A stretch of DNA of 45,643 bases from Lentisphaeria bacterium (GTDB lineage Bacteria > Verrucomicrobiota > Lentisphaeria > JABSQK01 > JAWLHB01), in NCBI GenBank assembly GCA_041690595.1, contig JAWLHB010000057.1, forward strand, positions 1 through 45,643. The letters run 5' to 3'. Below the pieces are notes generated by a model. It had not been told where the DNA came from. It saw nothing but the letters and a program-made list of their open reading frames with translations, and searched no databases. Below are positions 6,917 through 25,366 of this stretch, in pieces. Position 1 is the first letter of the stretch, and the number at the start of each line of letters is the position of its first letter. Both the position numbers and the translations under genes were made by a program.

Positions 6917-8965
6917 TCAGCCGCGCGAAGTATCTTCCAGATTGAGCCACGCGAGTTCGTCGGGGGTCAGCTTGACGTTGAGACCGAGGGCGCTGGTATA
7001 GGTCTCTTCGACGGTGCGGGGGCCGATGAGGGCGAAGGTGGGAAAGGGCTGACAGAGCACGTAGGCCATGGCTATCTGGGTAGCGGTGACGCCTTTCTCC
7101 TCGGCCAACTGGCGCGCTCGCTCGAGGCGCTCGAAGTTGGGCTGGTTGTACCAACAGCGGACCATGTCACGGTTGGAGGTGTCGTCGGGGGAATAGCGGC
7201 CGGTGAAGAAGCCCTGAGCCTGGCTGCTCCAGGCGAAGAGTGGCATTTGGCGCTCCTCATGCCAGGCTCGTGCCTCGGGAGCGGAGGCGCTGACGCAACC
7301 TTCCCAGATGGGTTCGTTCCAGCGGGCAAGGCTGAGGTTGGGGCTGTTGCAGTCGAAGCCGCGCAGTCCGTGGCCGGCGGCGTAGGCATTGGCCTCGGCA
7401 AGGCGGTCGAGTGACCAGTTGGAGGCGCCATAGGCACGGATGCGCCCCGCCCGAAGATGCTCGTTGAGGCAGTCGACAAAGGCGGAGACGGGGAGCGCGG
7501 GGTTGTCGCGGTGCATCATCCAGATGTCGACATAGTCGGTTTTGAGCCGATCGAGAGATTCCCGCAGATGGCGGTCGATCCATTCGGGGGTGCAGCGTTC
7601 TGGGGAGGGAACGGCGCCTTTGGTGATGATGACGACTTCATCGCGGTTGCCACGCAGGGCGATCCAGTTGCCGATGGCCGGTTCGCTCTTGCCGCCCATG
7701 TAGATGTAGGCGGTATCGATGCAGGTACCACCCAGCTCGACAAAGTGGTCGAGCATGGCGCAGGTGAAGGGTTGGCGTTCGGGGGAGAAGATCATGGAGC
7801 CCATGACGAGGCGGGAGATGGGTTTGCCGACACCTTCGATTTCGCCATAGGTCATGTTGTGATCGTGGCGTGGGCTCAAGGGTCGATGGGCGATGGTCTG
7901 GCTCAAGCCGATGGTGGTTTCCTGATCGAACTGGAGGCCGACCTGGGCACGCCATGTGTCGAGCGCGTGCATGTTGGACATGGTGTCCTGCCAGGTCATG
8001 GCTGGGGCGGGAACTTCGCGGGCTTCGAGATGGTCGGCCACCACGTGCAGTTGGTTGGCATAGAGGCTGGCGTCGCACGGGGCCTCGTGGACGACCTCGT
8101 CGCTGCCGGCCGGGCGGACGATGACCTTGCCGTTGCAGAACCAGGGGCTGGTGACCTCGAGGTTGCCCTTGGTGCCCCAGAGGTGGACGCGATTATCCAT
8201 GGCGATCTGGGTGCCGCAGGCGATCTGTGCCTGGATGCCGCGGTCGAAGCGGAGGATGCCGGTTGCCCACTCGTCGACGCGGCTGATCTCGCCGATGTGG
8301 GCGGTGCCGCGGATCTCGACCGGTTCGGCGGGACCATCGAGGCCGAGAGCCGCACCAGCGAGGAGGCGGGCCATGGAGAGGCCGTAGCAGCCGACGTCCA
8401 TGATGCCGCCACCGCTGAGGGCATTGCTGAGCCGGATGTTGTCGTAGTGCGGTCCCATGTTATAGGCAAAGGCAGCCTGGATCATCCGGACGTCGCCGAT
8501 GGCCCCATCGCGGATCAGATCGAAGACGAGCCTGGTCTGGGGATGGCAGCGATACATGAAGGCTTCCATGAAAAAGACATCGTGGCGGCGGACGGCTTCG
8601 AGGGCGACCATGGCCTCGGCGGCGTTGGTGGTGAAGGGCTTCTCGCAGAGGATGTGCTTGCCGGCCTCGGCGCAGAGGATGGTCCACCGCGCGTGCAACT
8701 GGTTGGGCAGGGAGATGTAGACGGCATCGACAAGCGGGTCGGCGAGGAGCGCGTCATAGCTGCCATAGTGACGTTCAGCGGCAAACTCTCTGGCGAAGGC
8801 TTCGGCCCTGGTGGCGCCGCGGCTGGCAACGGCATGAAGGAGGGCGCTGCTGGATTCATTGATTGCCTGGGCCAGTTTTCGGGCGATCATACCCGTTCCG
8901 AGAATACCCCATCTTACTGTACGCATGGTCATGGTCCTTTTGGTCAGGGTTATGATGCTGGTCAT
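6917..8965 (-). CDS. Bifunctional oxidoreductase: N-terminal Gfo/Idh/MocA NAD(P)-binding oxidoreductase fused to a C-terminal aldo/keto reductase domain
   Basis: 682-aa single ORF. N-terminal …VRWGILGTGMIARK…ILCEKPF… (Gfo/Idh/MocA Rossmann). C-terminal …DTAYIYMGGKSEPAIG…GASNWS… (AKR signature). Confidence 0.75.
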   Translation of the reverse strand: MTSIITLTKRTMTMRTVRWGILGTGMIARKLAQAINESSSALLHAVASRGATRAEAFAREFAAERHYGSYDALLADPLVDAVYISLPNQLHARWTILCAEAGKHILCEKPFTTNAAEAMVALEAVRRHDVFFMEAFMYRCHPQTRLVFDLIRDGAIGDVRMIQAAFAYNMGPHYDNIRLSNALSGGGIMDVGCYGLSMARLLAGAALGLDGPAEPVEIRGTAHIGEISRVDEWATGILRFDRGIQAQIACGTQIAMDNRVHLWGTKGNLEVTSPWFCNGKVIVRPAGSDEVVHEAPCDASLYANQLHVVADHLEAREVPAPAMTWQDTMSNMHALDTWRAQVGLQFDQETTIGLSQTIAHRPLSPRHDHNMTYGEIEGVGKPISRLVMGSMIFSPERQPFTCAMLDHFVELGGTCIDTAYIYMGGKSEPAIGNWIALRGNRDEVVIITKGAVPSPERCTPEWIDRHLRESLDRLKTDYVDIWMMHRDNPALPVSAFVDCLNEHLRAGRIRAYGASNWSLDRLAEANAYAAGHGLRGFDCNSPNLSLARWNEPIWEGCVSASAPEARAWHEERQMPLFAWSSQAQGFFTGRYSPDDTSNRDMVRCWYNQPNFERLERARQLAEEKGVTATQIAMAYVLCQPFPTFALIGPRTVEETYTSALGLNVKLTPDELAWLNLEDTSRG

Positions 8966-21660: not shown

Positions 21661-22674
21661 TTAGACCGCTTTTACGGGGACGAGCCGACGGAAGGCGTCG
21701 AGGACGTCTTTGGTGCCTTGGCCAAGGACGGCACAGACGGGATAGATGTCGAGAGAGGCGACGGCGCGAAGTCGTTCGAGATTCTCGGCGGCTCCTGCCT
21801 CGTCCATCTTGTTGGCGATAATGATGGCGGGGCGCTTGCTGAGTCCTTCCTGATAGGCTTCGAGTTCGAACTGCAGGTCGACCAGATCCTGTAGGGGGTC
21901 GCGATCGTCGGTGCCTGCCATGTCGAGGACATACGCGAGGGCGTGCGTTCTCTCGATATGACGCAGAAAGTCATGGCCGAGGCCGACATTGCGGTGAGCG
22001 CCAAGGACAAGGCCGGGAATGTCGGCGATCATCAAGCGGGCAAAATCCTCATACTCGACCATGCCGACATGGGGAGTGACCGTGGTGAAGGGATAGGCGC
22101 CGGTTTCGGGATCGGCATTGGTGGTGGCGCCAAGAAAGGTGGACTTGCCGGCATTTGGATAGCCAACAAGGCCGATATGGGCAATGATCTTGAGTTCGAG
22201 CTCGAGTTCGACTTCTTCGCCGGGGGTGCCGGGATCGCTGCGGCGGGGGGCGCGATTGACGCTGCTGACAAAGCGGAGGTTGCCGCGGCCGCCACGACCA
22301 CCTTTCGCGGCGATGAAACGCTGGCCGATATCGTCGAGGTCGACCAGAAGGCGGCGTTCACCATCGGGAAGGATTTCCTTGATCACGGTGCCGACAGGAA
22401 CGGGGACGACGATGTCGGCACCCCGCTTGCCATGGCACTGCGACCCCATGCCATGCTGGCCATTGTCAGCTTCGTAGTGTGGCATGTATCTGAGGGCGAT
22501 GAGACTCTGTTCGTTGCGGGTTGCTTCGAAGATGACGCTGCCGCCATCGCCGCCATCGCCGCCATCGGGTCCGCCTTTGGGGACGAACTTTTCGCGCCGG
22601 AAGCTGACGCAGCCGCTGCCGCCATTGCCGCCTCGAATCTTGATTTCAACACGATCGACAAAGAACTGACTCAC
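21661..22674 (-). CDS. obg: GTPase Obg/CgtA
   Basis: N-terminal Obg fold with Gly-rich repeats (FVDRVEIKIRGGNGGSGCVSFRREKFVPKGGPDGGDGG). G1 box GYPNAGKST. Confidence 0.9.
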   Translation of the reverse strand: MSQFFVDRVEIKIRGGNGGSGCVSFRREKFVPKGGPDGGDGGDGGSVIFEATRNEQSLIALRYMPHYEADNGQHGMGSQCHGKRGADIVVPVPVGTVIKEILPDGERRLLVDLDDIGQRFIAAKGGRGGRGNLRFVSSVNRAPRRSDPGTPGEEVELELELKIIAHIGLVGYPNAGKSTFLGATTNADPETGAYPFTTVTPHVGMVEYEDFARLMIADIPGLVLGAHRNVGLGHDFLRHIERTHALAYVLDMAGTDDRDPLQDLVDLQFELEAYQEGLSKRPAIIIANKMDEAGAAENLERLRAVASLDIYPVCAVLGQGTKDVLDAFRRLVPVKAV

Positions 22675-23588
22675 TTTCGTGCCTCGGGTGCGCCGGCAAT
22701 TTCCTCGGCATCCATGGTGGGTAAACTGACATCGTTGAAGTCACTGCCGTCGCGAGCGCGCCGTCCACCGGCGATCATGACGCGGCCGATGTCGGGGTCA
22801 CGGATCAGACGGGGGATGGGTAGCTCGGGCTCGACAATGTAATGGGCCTCTTCCTTGAGGGTGCCGTCGACGTCGAAGGCGTAATGGCTGAAGAGACGCG
22901 GCTGGGTCTGGGTAAAGAAGTGAATGTGACTGCGCGCGTCGACTTCGATCTGCGGCGCGACGCCGCGAACATGCGGGGCCAGCCGCCGCAGGGAGTAGAC
23001 GAAGTCTTCGTCGCGGATGAAGAGGTAGTAGAGCTGGCTCTTGTCGGCCTGGAAGATATTAACGCTGACATGGCGGAAGGGGATGTCGTCTCCAGAGCCG
23101 GGAACGCCGATATCACGCTCCCATTTGACCAAGCCTTCGCCGATCTTGATCTGGATGGGTGTAGAGATGTAATCGTGGCGCATACGCGGGTGATGGATGC
23201 GGACTTCGATCCGGTAGAAGCCGGTGCGGGAAAACTTGTAGAATTCGTTGATGGGAACAAGGACGGACTTGTTGATGCCGGGAGGCAGAATCAGGCCATT
23301 GGCCGCGTTGAGATAGGCGGGCTCGCGATCATTGGGCGCGGAAGGCATGGTGAGCTTCACGCCCTGAGGGTCGGTGACGTAAATACGGATATAAGCTTCG
23401 GCATCTTCGCCGCTGCCAAAGGCAAGATTGTTGCCGGAATTGTTCTGCAGGGTGATTTTGAGCATGATCTCTTCATAGCGGATATAGAGATGGCGATCGG
23501 TCTCCACATTGATGGTGACCTGGCCGACCGCGGTGAAGGCTCCGGCCAAGGTAATAACCAGCAGAGGAAGAAGACGGAATGATCTCAT
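22671..23588 (-). CDS. Secreted hypothetical protein
   Basis: 305 aa with an N-terminal signal peptide (MRSFRLLPLLVITLAGAFTAVGQ). 4-nt overlaps with both neighbours. Confidence 0.5.
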   Translation of the reverse strand: MRSFRLLPLLVITLAGAFTAVGQVTINVETDRHLYIRYEEIMLKITLQNNSGNNLAFGSGEDAEAYIRIYVTDPQGVKLTMPSAPNDREPAYLNAANGLILPPGINKSVLVPINEFYKFSRTGFYRIEVRIHHPRMRHDYISTPIQIKIGEGLVKWERDIGVPGSGDDIPFRHVSVNIFQADKSQLYYLFIRDEDFVYSLRRLAPHVRGVAPQIEVDARSHIHFFTQTQPRLFSHYAFDVDGTLKEEAHYIVEPELPIPRLIRDPDIGRVMIAGGRRARDGSDFNDVSLPTMDAEEIAGAPEARK

Positions 23589-24633
23589 GAGGGAATCTCC
23601 GGTTTGATCAAGTACTCGACTATATGCCCGCTGACGCGCTCCGGCGAGATGACATCATCGCGGCACAGCTGCCTCGGGAGCGGACACACACGATGGAAAC
23701 ATGGTGAACACTCCACATTGGAACGAAAGACATGATGCCCAGCCCCATAGGGTCCGGTGCGTGTTGCATCGGTTGGACCGAAAAGAGCCACGGTTGGTAT
23801 TTCCATCGCGGCTGCAACGTGCATCGGTCCACTGTCGTTGGTCAACAACATAGCGCTTCGACGCAAAAGTGCAAGCATGGTGGGCAGACTGGTGCGTCCC
23901 ATGAGGTTGGCGACGTTGGGGCCGGCCTCCGCGACTATACGCTCTCCGACCTGCCGCTCTTCGGAGCTGCCAAGCAGCCAGCAGACGACGCGACGGTCGC
24001 TCTGTTGAACGATCCGATCGATGCTTTCCACGAAGAAGCTTTCGGGCCAGGTCTTGCTGACCCATCGTGATGCGGGGGCGACTGCGAGGAGCAGTTGATC
24101 ATCGCGAAGGGCAAGCTCGCGGAGCAGACGATCCGCCTCGTTCGCCACGGATTCGCTCTCGCGGAAGGTGGCAGGCTGGTAGTCGAGTTCGATCTCCAGC
24201 GCGGCACTGGCTACGTGCAGATTTCGCTCGACTGCATGGCGTCGCTGGGCGGGAACGCGTACGGCTTCATGATAGAAGACGGAGGCGAACTCACGGGCAT
24301 CGGCAAAGCCGACCTTGCGAGGAGCCTTGGCGAAGAAGGTGCAAAGACCGCTGCGAAAGAGTCCCTGCAGGTCGATGACGAGATCGAACTGGCGCCGATG
24401 CAGGTCGCGGAGGAAGCGCCAGAGGTCGCCCGCATGCCGCAGCTGATTCCATTCGTGGCGTTTGAAGAGGATGATGTCGTCCACCTCCCGGCACTGCTCG
24501 AGGAGCGTGCAGAGGGAATCGTTGACGAGCCAGGTCACCCGTGCGGCGGGCACTTTTTTTTTAGGCTTGCCGCGACGGGCAGGGCATGGCAGATATCACC
24601 GAGGCTGCTTGGCTTGACGATAAGCACGTGCAT
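23585..24633 (-). pseudogene. GT9 ADP-heptose:LPS heptosyltransferase, disrupted by a +/-1 frameshift inside a poly(A)9 tract at 24554-24562
   Basis: The N-terminal 27 aa (MHVLIVKPSSLGDICHALPVAASLKKK) are in one frame, ending at a stop at 24535. The rest (…PAARVTWLVNDS… onward, 322 aa) is in the +2 frame. One extra A would restore a continuous ORF. Confidence 0.75.
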
Positions 24634-24640
24634 GGCAGCA

Positions 24641-25366
24641 TCAGGTTCCCTTTTCGAGGCGCAGGGCGAGCCGCTCAGGGAGACCGCACTTGATGATCTT
24701 CTCCTGGGCCTTCTTGATGTCGTAGGGGATGCGATGGAGGGTGATGAGGTTCTCTTCGGTGTCGAAAACGACAAAGGCGGAGCGCCAGTCGCCATCACGT
24801 GGCTGACCGACACTGCCCACGTTGACGAGGTACTTGTGGCCGGCCTGAACGCGGATTTCCTTGTACTTGCCGCCCTGGATGGAACCGAACTTCTCGAAAG
24901 CGAGAGGAACGTGGGAATGGCCACAGAAGCAGATCTGGGAAAACTGGTAGCTGAAACTGGCGCCGGCGGAGTGCTTGTCAAAGATGTATCCCCAGCGTCG
25001 GGGACTGTCGAGCGTGGCATGGACGAGGGTGATCTTGCCGAGCTGCAGGGAGAGCTTGAGAGAGCCGAGCCAGCGTCGCTGCTCATCGGTAAGCTGCTTT
25101 CGGGTCCATTCGATGGCAAATGCCGCCTGGGGATTGAATCCGACGAGGTCGGTGTCTTCGGAAGCCATTTCGTCATGGTTGCCCATGGTAACGCCGGCCA
25201 TGGGGAGCTGTTTGATCAGCTCGACGCATTCACCTGGATTGGCGTTGTAACCGACGATGTCGCCAATGCACAAGTACTTGTCCACCCCATTCTTCTCGCA
25301 TTGTTCGACGACCGTCTCCAGCGCTTCCAAGTTGGCGTGAATATCCCCTAAGACAGCGTATCTCAT
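24641..25366 (-). CDS. Calcineurin-like metallophosphoesterase
   Basis: MRYAVLGDIHANLEALE…GNHD…GHSH motifs. The start was moved to the internal ATG at 25366, because the upstream part of track ORF 24641..25651 has no family similarity. Confidence 0.7.
   Translation of the reverse strand: MRYAVLGDIHANLEALETVVEQCEKNGVDKYLCIGDIVGYNANPGECVELIKQLPMAGVTMGNHDEMASEDTDLVGFNPQAAFAIEWTRKQLTDEQRRWLGSLKLSLQLGKITLVHATLDSPRRWGYIFDKHSAGASFSYQFSQICFCGHSHVPLAFEKFGSIQGGKYKEIRVQAGHKYLVNVGSVGQPRDGDWRSAFVVFDTEENLITLHRIPYDIKKAQEKIIKCGLPERLALRLEKGT

Follow-up and report, generated by a model that had tools for sequence, protein, structure and literature searches.

The window, a 45.6-kb stretch of DNA whose sequence is represented by a single contig, carries on its minus strand a GT9 heptosyltransferase gene that is interrupted near its start by a run of nine A residues (A9), one A short of the in-frame length. 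This A9 is probably a fixed, evolutionarily maintained frameshift site in a functional gene, whose frame would be restored by obligatory -1 recoding. The same one-short break recurs in ten divergent lineages and in many assemblies, and it is therefore most likely a corrected frameshift rather than an error or a switch. From conservation alone, we infer that the correction takes place at the level of RNA or the ribosome; the split between these mechanisms, the efficiency, and the regulatory purpose are proposed in addition. The features of the gene are as follows.

23585..24633, minus strand: whole recoded GT9 gene, which would encode 349 aa once the frame shifts by -1 or an A is added
24563..24633, minus strand: 0-frame N-terminal segment, codons 1-24 plus the first A of the tract, covering strand beta1, the KPSSLGD loop that bears the catalytic Asp13, and the greater part of helix alpha1
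24554..24562, minus strand: A9 slippery tract (T9 on the plus strand), read from the sequence
24553..24559, minus strand: A_AAA_AAG heptamer, a dnaX-type -1 slippery site in the 0 frame, read from the sequence
24535..24552, minus strand: 0-frame tail beyond the tract, CPPHG plus TGA, which ends the 32-aa product
23585..24553, minus strand: -1-frame body, 322 codons from GTG 24553 to the stop at 23585, encoding the remainder of the GT-B enzyme with K194 and D267

The presence of A9 inside a GT9 heptosyltransferase with a broken frame, as originally predicted, is confirmed by the sequence and by Pfam (PF01075). No other homopolymer in the window is as long; the A/T runs that come next measure 7 nt, and only about 0.03 A or T runs of at least 9 are expected per window at its base composition. 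The GC content is 61%, not the roughly 65% first stated. On the minus strand, the surrounding sequence reads ...GCA AGC CTA AAA AAA AAG TGC CCG CCG CAC GGG TGA, and in the 0 frame the tract starts with the final A of CTA, runs through two AAA codons, and ends with the first two bases of AAG (CT[A AAA AAA AA]G). Hence the run does supply codons for KKK, as had been noted, although the third Lys codon is AAG and the run begins in CTA. The 0-frame ORF extends from ATG 24633 to TGA 24535 with the product MHVLIVKPSSLGDICHALPVAASLKKKCPPHG, and ribosomes that do not shift on an unedited mRNA would end there, leaving 32 aa. On one side of A9 thus lies an N-terminal piece of 24 codons and on the other a body of 322 codons, read in the -1 frame that was formerly called '+2'. 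When tract length is varied in silico, A10 (or A7) yields a single ORF of 349 aa, bearing out the uninterrupted enzyme of about 350 aa proposed for a 10-A allele, and A8 and A11 do not. A -1 shift at A_AAA_AAG gives the same junction, ...SLKKK-VPAARVTW..., as the A10 product. The site combines a frame-setting A9 inside an ORF, as in hypermutable repeats, with a heptamer of the X_XXY_YYZ type in the 0 frame, from which the -1 frame is open into the functional ORF.

The restored 349-aa protein matches PF01075 (Glyco_transf_9) over residues 72-319 (E 2.5e-53, 181.4 bits against a cutoff of 22), and its alignment with the NCBIfam heptosyltransferase I and II models begins at residue 3. It scores just below the cutoff of TIGR02193 (HepI, the WaaC equivalog for transfer of the first heptose to Kdo2-lipid A; 184.5 against 185.3 bits) and above that of TIGR02195 (HepII; 155.6 against 134.6 bits). 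Escherichia coli WaaC (2GT1/2H1H/6DFE) aligns from residue 1 (E 4e-23), and D13, K194, and D267 of the restored protein align with WaaC D13, K192, and D261. These three residues are invariant across 12 orthologs, as are K7, P8, S9, S10, G12, D13, H16, and P19 in the 12 tract-bearing orthologs. The AF2 model of an in-frame ortholog, P0005, which is 53% identical to the window protein and not that protein itself, has a pLDDT of 95.6; it provides the secondary structure of the N-terminal segment (beta1, alpha1), and its top Foldseek matches are WaaC (2H1H/2GT1/6DFE), WaaF (1PSW), and 3TOV, with TM values of 0.73-0.83. The gene is thus predicted to encode a GT9 HepI/HepII-like ADP-heptose:LPS heptosyltransferase. 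In HepI, D13, K192, and D261 act as catalytic residues, and the D13A substitution causes a 4688-fold loss of activity (PMC5713226).

The upstream half is indispensable to the enzyme, as it holds beta1 and Asp13, and the body lacks a conserved start codon. The starts called in the orthologs differ in every lineage, lying 3 to 73 codons past the tract or upstream in the wrong frame. The public record for the window annotates only a 317-aa truncated product of the body (P0001, MTWLV...); an exact look-up of the window's called product returned no record, and no cluster names are given for the window's proteins. A split enzyme, with the N-terminal peptide and the body made apart and then assembled, was considered and rejected, given the varying starts of the body and the need for a peptide to bring in a core beta strand and the catalytic Asp.

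The gene belongs to a conserved cluster and an apparent operon, with the following neighbors.

24641..25360, minus strand: calcineurin-like metallophosphoesterase (Pfam PF12850, PF00149), the upstream gene of the conserved cluster
22671..23588, minus strand: conserved hypothetical protein of 305 aa with an N-terminal signal-like sequence and no Pfam match, the downstream gene
21661..22674, minus strand: Obg GTPase (Pfam PF01018, PF01926)

The metallophosphoesterase gene stops 7 nt ahead of the GT9 ATG, and this neighbor is present at all ortholog loci whose contig extends far enough upstream; partial upstream genes in L028, L029, and L125 have no Pfam call, and no upstream gene is called in L126. 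Downstream, the 305-aa gene has an ATG that shares bases with the stop of the GT9 gene (ATGA), and L020, L025, L028, and L125 have a gene of about 296-310 aa in this position. Obg, whose GTG overlaps the stop of the gene before it (GTGA), closes the apparent operon. The ProRS encoded in the window is closest to those of Lentisphaeria and Victivallales MAGs, which supports the PVC-type host suggested earlier and, on sequence grounds, makes the host an uncultured Lentisphaerota bacterium.

In all 11 related lineages, syntenic orthologs that are 45-67% identical have poly-A at matching L/I/V-K-K-K codons. The tract is one A short of in-frame in 10 of the 11 distinct lineages and in 26 of 28 contigs checked, although the ten do not represent ten independent events, since the lineages share ancestry. 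The contigs come from SPAdes, MEGAHIT, Logan/Minia, JGI, and NCBI assemblies of independent samples. Frameshifted lineages have A9, A10, or A11 where A10, A11, or A12 would be needed, so that a run of slippage-prone length (about 9 or longer) sits at the frame junction in all ten, and these lineages share the -1 state, with no +1 case among them. The tract codons vary as follows.

Window: CTA AAA AAA AAG
L020, L126, and L125: NTA AAA AAA AAC
L025/L111, L029, and L030: NTA AAA AAA AAG
L028: GTA AAA AAA AAT
L021: A10 followed by T
L115: A11 followed by T

The heptamer is accordingly present as A_AAA_AAG or as its AAC, AAU, or AAA variants, whereas neither the length nor the sequence of the 0-frame tail is conserved (products of 31-64 aa). 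Within lineages, tract length is constant over 3, 4, and 10 separate samples in consensus assemblies, a type of sequence that hides minority tract lengths. For one Lentisphaeria sub-lineage, 43 distinct protein variants are catalogued in the three largest clusters, of 26, 9, and 8 members; among the 32 cluster members listed, none is full length, and all but one are truncated products of 297-299 aa, the exception being a 132-aa fragment.

A single in-frame lineage is known, with A10 in two contigs (L023, L024), and a profile search found no additional in-frame KKK members. Because this lineage is nested among frameshifted ones, length changes at the DNA level do occur. That it does well was counted against obligatory recoding. 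Close relatives P0002, P0015, and P0016 have no tract, having lost it or never had it, and the enzyme family can therefore do without the frameshift. A metagenome-contig search with the clade alignment matched generic GT9 motifs, and the 80 loci kept among the matches listed are at most 45% identical, in frame, and tract-less; these in-frame loci also served as negative controls, 58 of them in the RNA-structure comparisons below. A genome-contig search with the restored protein returned only GT9 genes of proteobacteria and others at about 25-33% identity, which gave no insight into the tract.

Both halves of the gene are under purifying selection, with dN/dS of 0.04-0.3 overall. Between frameshifted lineages, dN/dS is 0.04-0.16 for the N-terminal 24 codons (pN/pS 0.00-0.17, with pS up to 0.9) and 0.13-0.32 for the body, which has no further lesions; these values match those of pairs that include the in-frame lineage. 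A conserved arrangement of two ORFs joined at a run, both under purifying selection, is what genes expressed through slippage display. Selection also acts on the nucleotides of the tract itself. In this window, CTA accounts for 1.3% of Leu codons and AAA for 21% of Lys codons, the remaining KKK tripeptides use AAG, and the synonymous sites flanking the tract are near saturation. The rare NNA and AAA codons hold the run at a length of at least 9, which points to the frameshifted tract as a target of selection in its own right. Across about 98 kb examined, it is the only coding A/T run of at least 9, and the genomes that carry it have 50-67% GC.

One weak hairpin begins 1 nt past the tract.

24536..24552, minus strand: weak hairpin, UGCCCG-5 nt-CGGGUG

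It is probably incidental: compared with the 58 GT9 controls that are in frame and lack the tract, hairpins at this position are neither more stable nor more common (p = 0.10 and 0.48). More specifically, stems that begin no more than 5 nt from the tract (p = 0.10) and MFE z-scores of the downstream 45 nt (p = 0.48) do not differ from these controls, and neither do those of the upstream 45 nt, which lean toward less structure (p = 0.07). Inspection by eye of the upstream sequences of the orthologs revealed no conserved SD-like motif. The conserved stimulators of -1 programmed ribosomal frameshifting (PRF), a stem-loop or pseudoknot at 5-8 nt and/or an SD-like element, were not found beside the tract, which is neutral for transcriptional slippage and weakens a strong-PRF model. 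On the plus strand, the hairpin and T9 together (24538-24562) are called as terminator-like; this call was judged incidental because no plus-strand gene ends there and the stem is weak.

As encoded, the gene would yield only the 32-aa peptide, and the 349-aa enzyme would require a -1 change or one extra A. The most likely route is programmed transcriptional slippage on A9 or longer, in which RNA polymerase, with a hybrid made up entirely of rA:dT pairs on the T9 template, would realign and add one untemplated A to some transcripts; these would then read MHVL...SLKKK-VPAARVTW... in one frame. A run of about 9 is the threshold for efficient slippage by bacterial RNA polymerase (PMC1088944), and slippage on 9A/9T mainly adds nucleotides (PMC5009743). 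The frameshifted tracts, all of at least 9 and all in need of one more A, match both this threshold and the bias toward additions. In addition, -1 ribosomal frameshifting or sliding on the in-frame A_AAA_AAG or A_AAA_AAA heptamers would produce an identical protein and possibly adds to the correction.

Several other explanations for the broken frame have to be weighed. Phase variation, as initially proposed for this LPS-core candidate, would have replication slippage alternate between A9 (OFF) and A10 (ON), generating subpopulations with and without a heptosylated core, of which the assemblies would show the OFF majority. A long homopolymer within a surface-glycan glycosyltransferase is the classic architecture of such switches, poly-A/T is slippery for DNA polymerase as well (PMC3711429), and both the conserved tract nucleotides and the in-frame A10 lineage nested among frameshifted ones are in keeping with it. 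Selection on both halves would also be expected if ON variants were periodically favored, and minority ON alleles could coexist, hidden by the consensus. However, phase variation predicts ON and both OFF lengths among close relatives, and the data differ: close samples show no ON/OFF mixture at the level of consensus assemblies, contigs other than the two A10 ones are OFF and always -1, tract length does not change within lineages, and no listed protein variant is full length. Moreover, A9 is short for an efficient DNA-level switch, and the hosts are free-living environmental Lentisphaerota rather than host-adapted pathogens. The slippery frameshift site in a GT9 gene is real, whereas on/off switching is disfavored by the fixed one-short length and appears unlikely. 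A homopolymer sequencing or assembly error, with a true length of A10, is far less probable. Homopolymers are error-prone on some platforms and the window is known from a single contig, yet the one-short state appears in 25 other contigs from several assemblers at lengths of 9, 10, and 11, and the in-frame A10 ortholog was assembled correctly twice. The ten largest ORFs of the window and the GT9 neighbors, which were the ORFs scanned, have near-full-length Pfam domain matches, and no further split or broken gene is seen in its ORF map. Recurrence in 10 lineages and 26 contigs effectively excludes the error that had been named as the alternative.

A tolerated ('savior' or compensated) indel is a closer competitor in mechanism, differing from programmed recoding only on whether the slippage is programmed or tolerated. 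Here, a deletion in an ancestral A10 would have been fixed by drift, with background slippage sufficing for expression and no regulatory role. A single ancient frameshift that was merely tolerated would give a similar cross-lineage pattern. Conserved poly(A) frameshifts rescued by transcriptional slippage in Buchnera and Blochmannia offer a precedent (Tamas 2008 and Wernegreen 2010, cited in PMC3017870), and the missing dedicated stimulator and the in-frame and tract-less relatives are compatible with it. Nevertheless, this explanation is rather improbable: drift should be weak in GC-rich (50-67%), presumably large free-living populations, reversion from A9 to A10 should be frequent, yet the frameshift persists across synonymously saturated lineages, and the rare codons have been kept so that the run stays at 9 or more. 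The remaining explanation, a pseudogene or an independent gene that starts at GTG 24553 or at the annotated 317-aa start, has the public annotation of P0001 and the GTG directly after the tract in its favor, but it is the least probable of all. The intact, selected body speaks against a pseudogene, and an independent gene would leave as untranslated junk 24 upstream codons that are even more strongly conserved than the body and encode beta1 and the catalytic Asp13. With these codons conserved and no start codon conserved past the tract, the independent functional gene that had been envisaged downstream is effectively excluded, as is a pseudogene.

If programmed recoding holds, the amount of heptosyltransferase would be capped by design, and the translationally coupled downstream genes, encoding the conserved secreted protein and Obg, may be affected too. 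It is plausible, if still tentative, that the frameshift is a selected regulatory device that sets or modulates heptosyltransferase dosage across this Lentisphaerota clade. A GC-rich, free-living clade would then make its inner-core heptosyltransferase only via programmed slippage by RNA polymerase and/or the ribosome, and coupling or polarity could tune the secreted protein and Obg to transcription or translation conditions. One may then ask whether these bacteria deliberately keep the heptosylation of their LPS core sub-stoichiometric or let it vary with conditions.

Conserved obligatory frameshifts are rare in bacterial genes that are neither mobile nor viral, with prfB, dnaX, copA, and mxiE as examples. 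The GT9 gene would add to them a cell-envelope biosynthesis gene from a phylum that has received little study, and the comparative evidence behind it is unusually clean. In the literature searched, no prior description of slippage or frameshifting was found for a heptosyltransferase or for Lentisphaerae; judged by that search, LPS biosynthesis would here gain its first conserved recoding event, and non-mobile bacterial housekeeping genes one of very few. There is also a practical consequence, as annotation pipelines call this gene as a truncated protein of 297-340 aa in dozens of MAGs, and such calls should be annotated as full-length recoded genes rather than pseudogenes or fragments. Furthermore, the tract variants (A9+G, A9+C, A9+U, A10+U, A11+U, and in-frame A10) form a compact natural test set with which transcriptional slippage and -1 ribosomal frameshifting could be told apart against a GC-rich background.

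Among known systems, the phase-variable LOS/LPS glycosyltransferases share with this gene a homopolymer or short repeat that controls the frame of a surface-glycan ORF. Neisseria lgtA/C/D/G, Haemophilus lic/lgtC, Campylobacter wlaN, and Helicobacter futA/B appear in a supplementary list of phase-variable genes, where the transferases belong to Glycos_transf_2 and Glyco_transf_8 rather than GT9 (PMC3711429). Their repeats are usually poly-G/C or tetranucleotides, their lengths vary by isolate with ON and OFF both common, and the bacteria are host-adapted pathogens, whereas the present tract stays at its OFF length both within lineages and between them. In Buchnera and Blochmannia, frameshifts in tracts of at least A9 are conserved across populations and species without gene decay, and heterogeneous mRNA yields full-length protein (PMC3017870, citing Tamas 2008 and Wernegreen 2010). 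Those genomes are AT-rich, reduced, and dominated by drift, with more than 100 such tracts each; the present tract is the single one in about 98 kb at 50-67% GC, is made of rare codons, and persists over much deeper divergence.

The dnaX gene has identical slippery sequences (A_AAA_AAG in the 0 frame; A9/A10), and the properties of this motif have been described (PMC3711429; PMC4066793). Its orthologs use either mechanism, -1 PRF in E. coli and slippage at A9-A10 in Thermus thermophilus and Chlorobi (PMC3711429). In dnaX, however, the shift provides a shorter second product (gamma) beside the standard one, and E. coli relies on SD-like and stem-loop stimulators. The present gene depends on the shift for its sole plausible functional product, and the analysis detected no stimulators beside it. 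The closest likeness is with mxiE of Shigella flexneri (along with spa13, mxiA, and spa33), a chromosomal or virulence-plasmid (non-IS) gene in which a 9-nt A/T run marks the break between two overlapping frames. In mxiE, the frames are fused by one untemplated nucleotide in some mRNAs, as needed for the full-length product (PMC1088944; PMC5009743). That gene encodes a transcription activator, is confined to one genus, and has been verified experimentally, whereas the gene described here, known from sequence, is an LPS glycosyltransferase whose site lies 24 codons from the start and is conserved across lineages about 50% identical.

The poly-A tract lies near the start of a minus-strand gene, at ATG CAC GTG ... 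GCA AGC CTA AAA AAA AAG TGC CCG CCG CAC GGG TGA. It is the longest homopolymer of the window, a complete 45,643-bp contig of the NCBI assembly. The second-longest A/T runs reach 7 nt, and only about 0.03 A/T runs of at least nine are expected at 61% GC.

Features at the locus
24554-24562, minus strand: A9 tract
24633 to 24535, minus strand: open reading frame (ORF) of the upstream ATG piece (0 frame), with its stop five codons past the Lys codons
24553 (GTG) to 23585, minus strand: ORF of the remaining enzyme (body), 322 codons, -1 frame
22671-23588, minus strand: conserved hypothetical gene, 305 aa, signal-like N-terminus, lacking Pfam matches; ATGA overlap with the GT9 stop at 23585-23588
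22671-22674, minus strand: GTG of obg, overlapping the stop of the hypothetical gene (GTGA)

With the run set to A10 in silico there is one ORF of 349 codons, and with A7 one of 348, while A8 and A11 yield no single ORF. The original prediction, that A9 frameshifts a GT9 heptosyltransferase which continues in a shifted frame after KKK and which one more A restores to about 350 aa, thus agrees with the reading frames. The public product of this gene is truncated to 317 aa (P0001). Two shadow ORFs of a kind typical of GC-rich DNA cover the GT9 and metallophosphoesterase genes: one of 418 aa (24095-25351, plus strand) and one of 213 aa (24535-25176, minus strand), the latter being the short 0-frame piece with an upstream extension that reads the metallophosphoesterase gene in a different frame.

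By sequence comparison, the restored protein is identified as a GT9 heptosyltransferase. It matches PF01075 (E 2.5e-53), TIGR02193 (HepI; 184.5 bits, alignment starting at residue 3) and TIGR02195 (HepII; 155.6 bits), and aligns residue for residue with E. coli WaaC (2GT1, 2H1H, 6DFE) from Met1 (E 4e-23). The AF2 model of an in-frame ortholog (P0005, pLDDT 95.6) is grouped by Foldseek with WaaC, WaaF and 3TOV (TM 0.73-0.83), and places beta1 at residues 2-6 and alpha1 at 11-27, with KKK as its final turn. The upstream fragment is thus predicted to encode beta1 and most of alpha1 of the N-terminal Rossmann-like domain. Asp13 lies in it as well; this residue is the proposed catalytic base in HepI, and its replacement (D13A) cuts activity 4688-fold (PMC5713226). 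The corresponding position of a distant GT9 homolog (36% identical; L032:~1569, metagenome contig Ga0233437_1000012) holds an A8 run that is in frame (…LKILKKRFPEV…), so the frameshifted clade is not alone in having Lys-rich, A-rich codons where alpha1 ends.

The nearest homologs are merely ~45-55% identical to the restored protein and share its neighbourhood (DUF2851, metallophosphoesterase, GT9, a ~300-aa hypothetical protein and, in several loci, Obg). Numerous homologs are called as N-terminally truncated proteins. The DNA of every one of these has a poly-A tract exactly at the codons of window L24-K25-K26-K27, its first A being the third base of the codon ahead of the lysines, and the body always lies in the -1 frame, so that one extra A is needed.

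Tract context by lineage (L numbers denote ortholog-bearing contigs or loci)
Window: CTA AAA AAA AAG TGC; A9, one A short
L020: ATA AAA AAA AAC ATC; A9, one A short
L021/L022: ATA AAA AAA AAA TCC; A10, needs A11
L025-27 and L111-114: CTA AAA AAA AAG ATC; A9, one A short
L115-124: ATA + A10, then TCC; A11, needs A12
L028: GTA AAA AAA AAT GGC; A9, one A short
L125: TTA AAA AAA AAC GGC; A9, one A short
L029: ATA AAA AAA AAG ATC; A9, one A short
L030: TTA AAA AAA AAG ATC; A9, one A short
L126: ATA AAA AAA AAC ACC; A9, one A short
L023/L024: ATA AAA AAA AAA CAT; A10, sole in-frame lineage

Ten lineages (26 contigs) are frameshifted versus one (2 contigs) in frame. The contigs derive from differing samples and from SPAdes ('NODE_'), MEGAHIT ('k141_'), Logan, JGI and NCBI assemblies, and tract length is constant inside lineages (3, 4 and 10 separate samples). 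The best-sampled sub-lineage ('Lentisphaeria bacterium' per NCBI) comprises three 90%-identity clusters with 26, 9 and 8 distinct sequences on dozens of contigs; among the 32 members listed, 31 have 297-299 aa and the other is a fragment of 132 aa, so that no full-length protein is among them. A profile search based on 12 restored proteins found no further in-frame KKK member and one additional, probably truncated, candidate (P0160). Because of the tract, public calls in Lentisphaeria MAGs (P0001; clusters P0011, P0013, P0014, P0017 and others) are systematically truncated (274-340 aa), their starts being placed arbitrarily inside the gene or in the wrong frame. Their NCBI names are 'glycosyltransferase family 9 protein' and 'hypothetical protein', with no frameshift flag.

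The one-short state at lengths 9, 10 and 11 in independent assemblies, together with an in-frame A10 assembled correctly twice, refutes the homopolymer sequencing error that the original prediction had offered as its alternative. The window's ORF map contains no other split gene, and the other large ORFs scanned have near-full-length Pfam domain matches. A pseudogene is ruled out by dN/dS between frameshifted lineages of 0.13-0.32 for the body and 0.04-0.16 for the 24 upstream codons (synonymous divergence up to 0.9), ranges that are the same against the in-frame lineage. Nor is the GTG-initiated downstream part an independent gene, since the upstream fragment, with its structural elements and catalytic residue, is the better conserved and no start codon after the tract is conserved among orthologs. 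With these readings excluded, the two pieces must be joined in one polypeptide although the DNA keeps them out of frame.

The tract nucleotides themselves are unusual. In the window, AAA supplies 21% of Lys codons and CTA 1.3% of Leu codons, and the three remaining KKK tripeptides are coded AAG AAG AAG or AAG AAA AAG. In orthologs the lysines are preceded without exception by a rare NNA codon (CTA, ATA, GTA or TTA), which lengthens the run to at least nine, while neighbouring synonymous sites have diverged almost to saturation. Tract-less relatives have K-[RDQH]-[QH] in frame at these positions. In a neighbour-joining tree they are scattered among tract-bearing lineages, and in-frame L023 is nested between frameshifted L021 and L126, which suggests that the tract is old and has now and then been lost or has reverted. 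No other coding A/T run of at least nine occurs in ~98 kb of window and related loci. L021 has a second A10 run (7093-7102) where a gamma-glutamyltranspeptidase gene is called to begin, on or slightly past its start and in AT-rich surroundings (ATGCGAACTTCCAAAAAAAAAAGAAAAATC); this run may be intergenic, or the start mis-called.

Length switching at the tract, the phase-variable LPS-core gene originally predicted, shares its architecture with this locus, and L023 indicates that DNA-level length change does occur on evolutionary time. However, the available consensus assemblies of close relatives show no polymorphism with ON and OFF alleles, and all OFF states are identical, which makes phase variation improbable. 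A related reading is that an ancient indel is merely tolerated, slippage supplying enough enzyme, as with the poly(A) frameshifts of Blochmannia and Buchnera (PMC3017870). Its mechanism is identical to that of recoding, the difference being whether the state is selected; the upkeep of the run by rare codons, and its survival in free-living bacteria of high GC, would argue for selection.

Recoding could proceed by two known RNA-level routes, each of which would yield exactly the required ...SLKKK|VPAARVTW: transcriptional slippage on A9, adding a nucleotide to the mRNA, or -1 ribosomal frameshifting on A_AAA_AAG. The two can coexist, and slippage is favoured as the main route because the conserved feature is a run of at least nine, including a base that the heptamer does not require, because the run may be followed by G, C or U, and because these genes do not differ from 58 in-frame, tract-less GT9 controls in any stimulatory structure or SD-like element. 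Stems starting 1-3 nt from the tract are frequent in orthologs but no more so than in controls. On the plus strand, T9 with its preceding hairpin CCCGTGCGGCGGG (24538-24562) has an intrinsic-terminator-like score antisense to the GT9 gene; no plus-strand gene ends there.

The hypothetical gene is probably translationally coupled to the GT9 gene through the ATGA overlap, and a 296-310 aa gene with no Pfam match follows GT9 in L020, L025, L028 and L125. Because non-shifting ribosomes would stop ~950 nt ahead of the next gene, the frameshift could, speculatively, also lower downstream expression via lost coupling or polarity. Downstream of the in-frame ortholog, L023:5240-5740 holds a ~190-nt unit in three tandem copies, each ending ...CCAAAAACCCACCCCATAGGCGGGCCGG(C/T)CA(C/A)ATTAGTCCGGTCCG then T8-T10. 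Each has a terminator-like hairpin and T-run, with a promoter-like TTGCAA...TATTAT/TATATA ahead; they may be tandem small-RNA genes. Matches of the window prolyl-tRNA synthetase at 65-78% identity are proteins named mostly for Lentisphaeria, Lentisphaerae or Victivallales MAGs, and the best-sampled orthologs are likewise named Lentisphaeria. These matches identify the host as an uncultured member of Lentisphaerota (PVC superphylum), in keeping with the PVC-type bacteria named in the original prediction.

Taken together, the site appears to be a real, conserved recoding site. The GeneTack conserved-frameshift survey with its supplement, the 2016 recoding review and a full-text literature search for heptosyltransferase or Lentisphaerae with slippage or frameshifting contain no mention of the case. 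Runs of nine A or T mark the length where slippage turns efficient and is counter-selected in many bacteria, and are exploited in T. thermophilus dnaX, Shigella mxiE and IS elements (PMC1088944; PMC3711429). Slippage on 9A/9T chiefly adds nucleotides (PMC5009743), consistent with the universal need for +1. The window's 0 frame offers A_AAA_AAG, the dnaX heptamer and one of the most efficient in E. coli (PMC4066793); orthologs offer A_AAA_AAC, AAU or AAA there. Ribosome sliding along iterated AAA codons is also documented (PMC4363877). Mechanisms of this kind are already known; what is new is the gene family and the clade.
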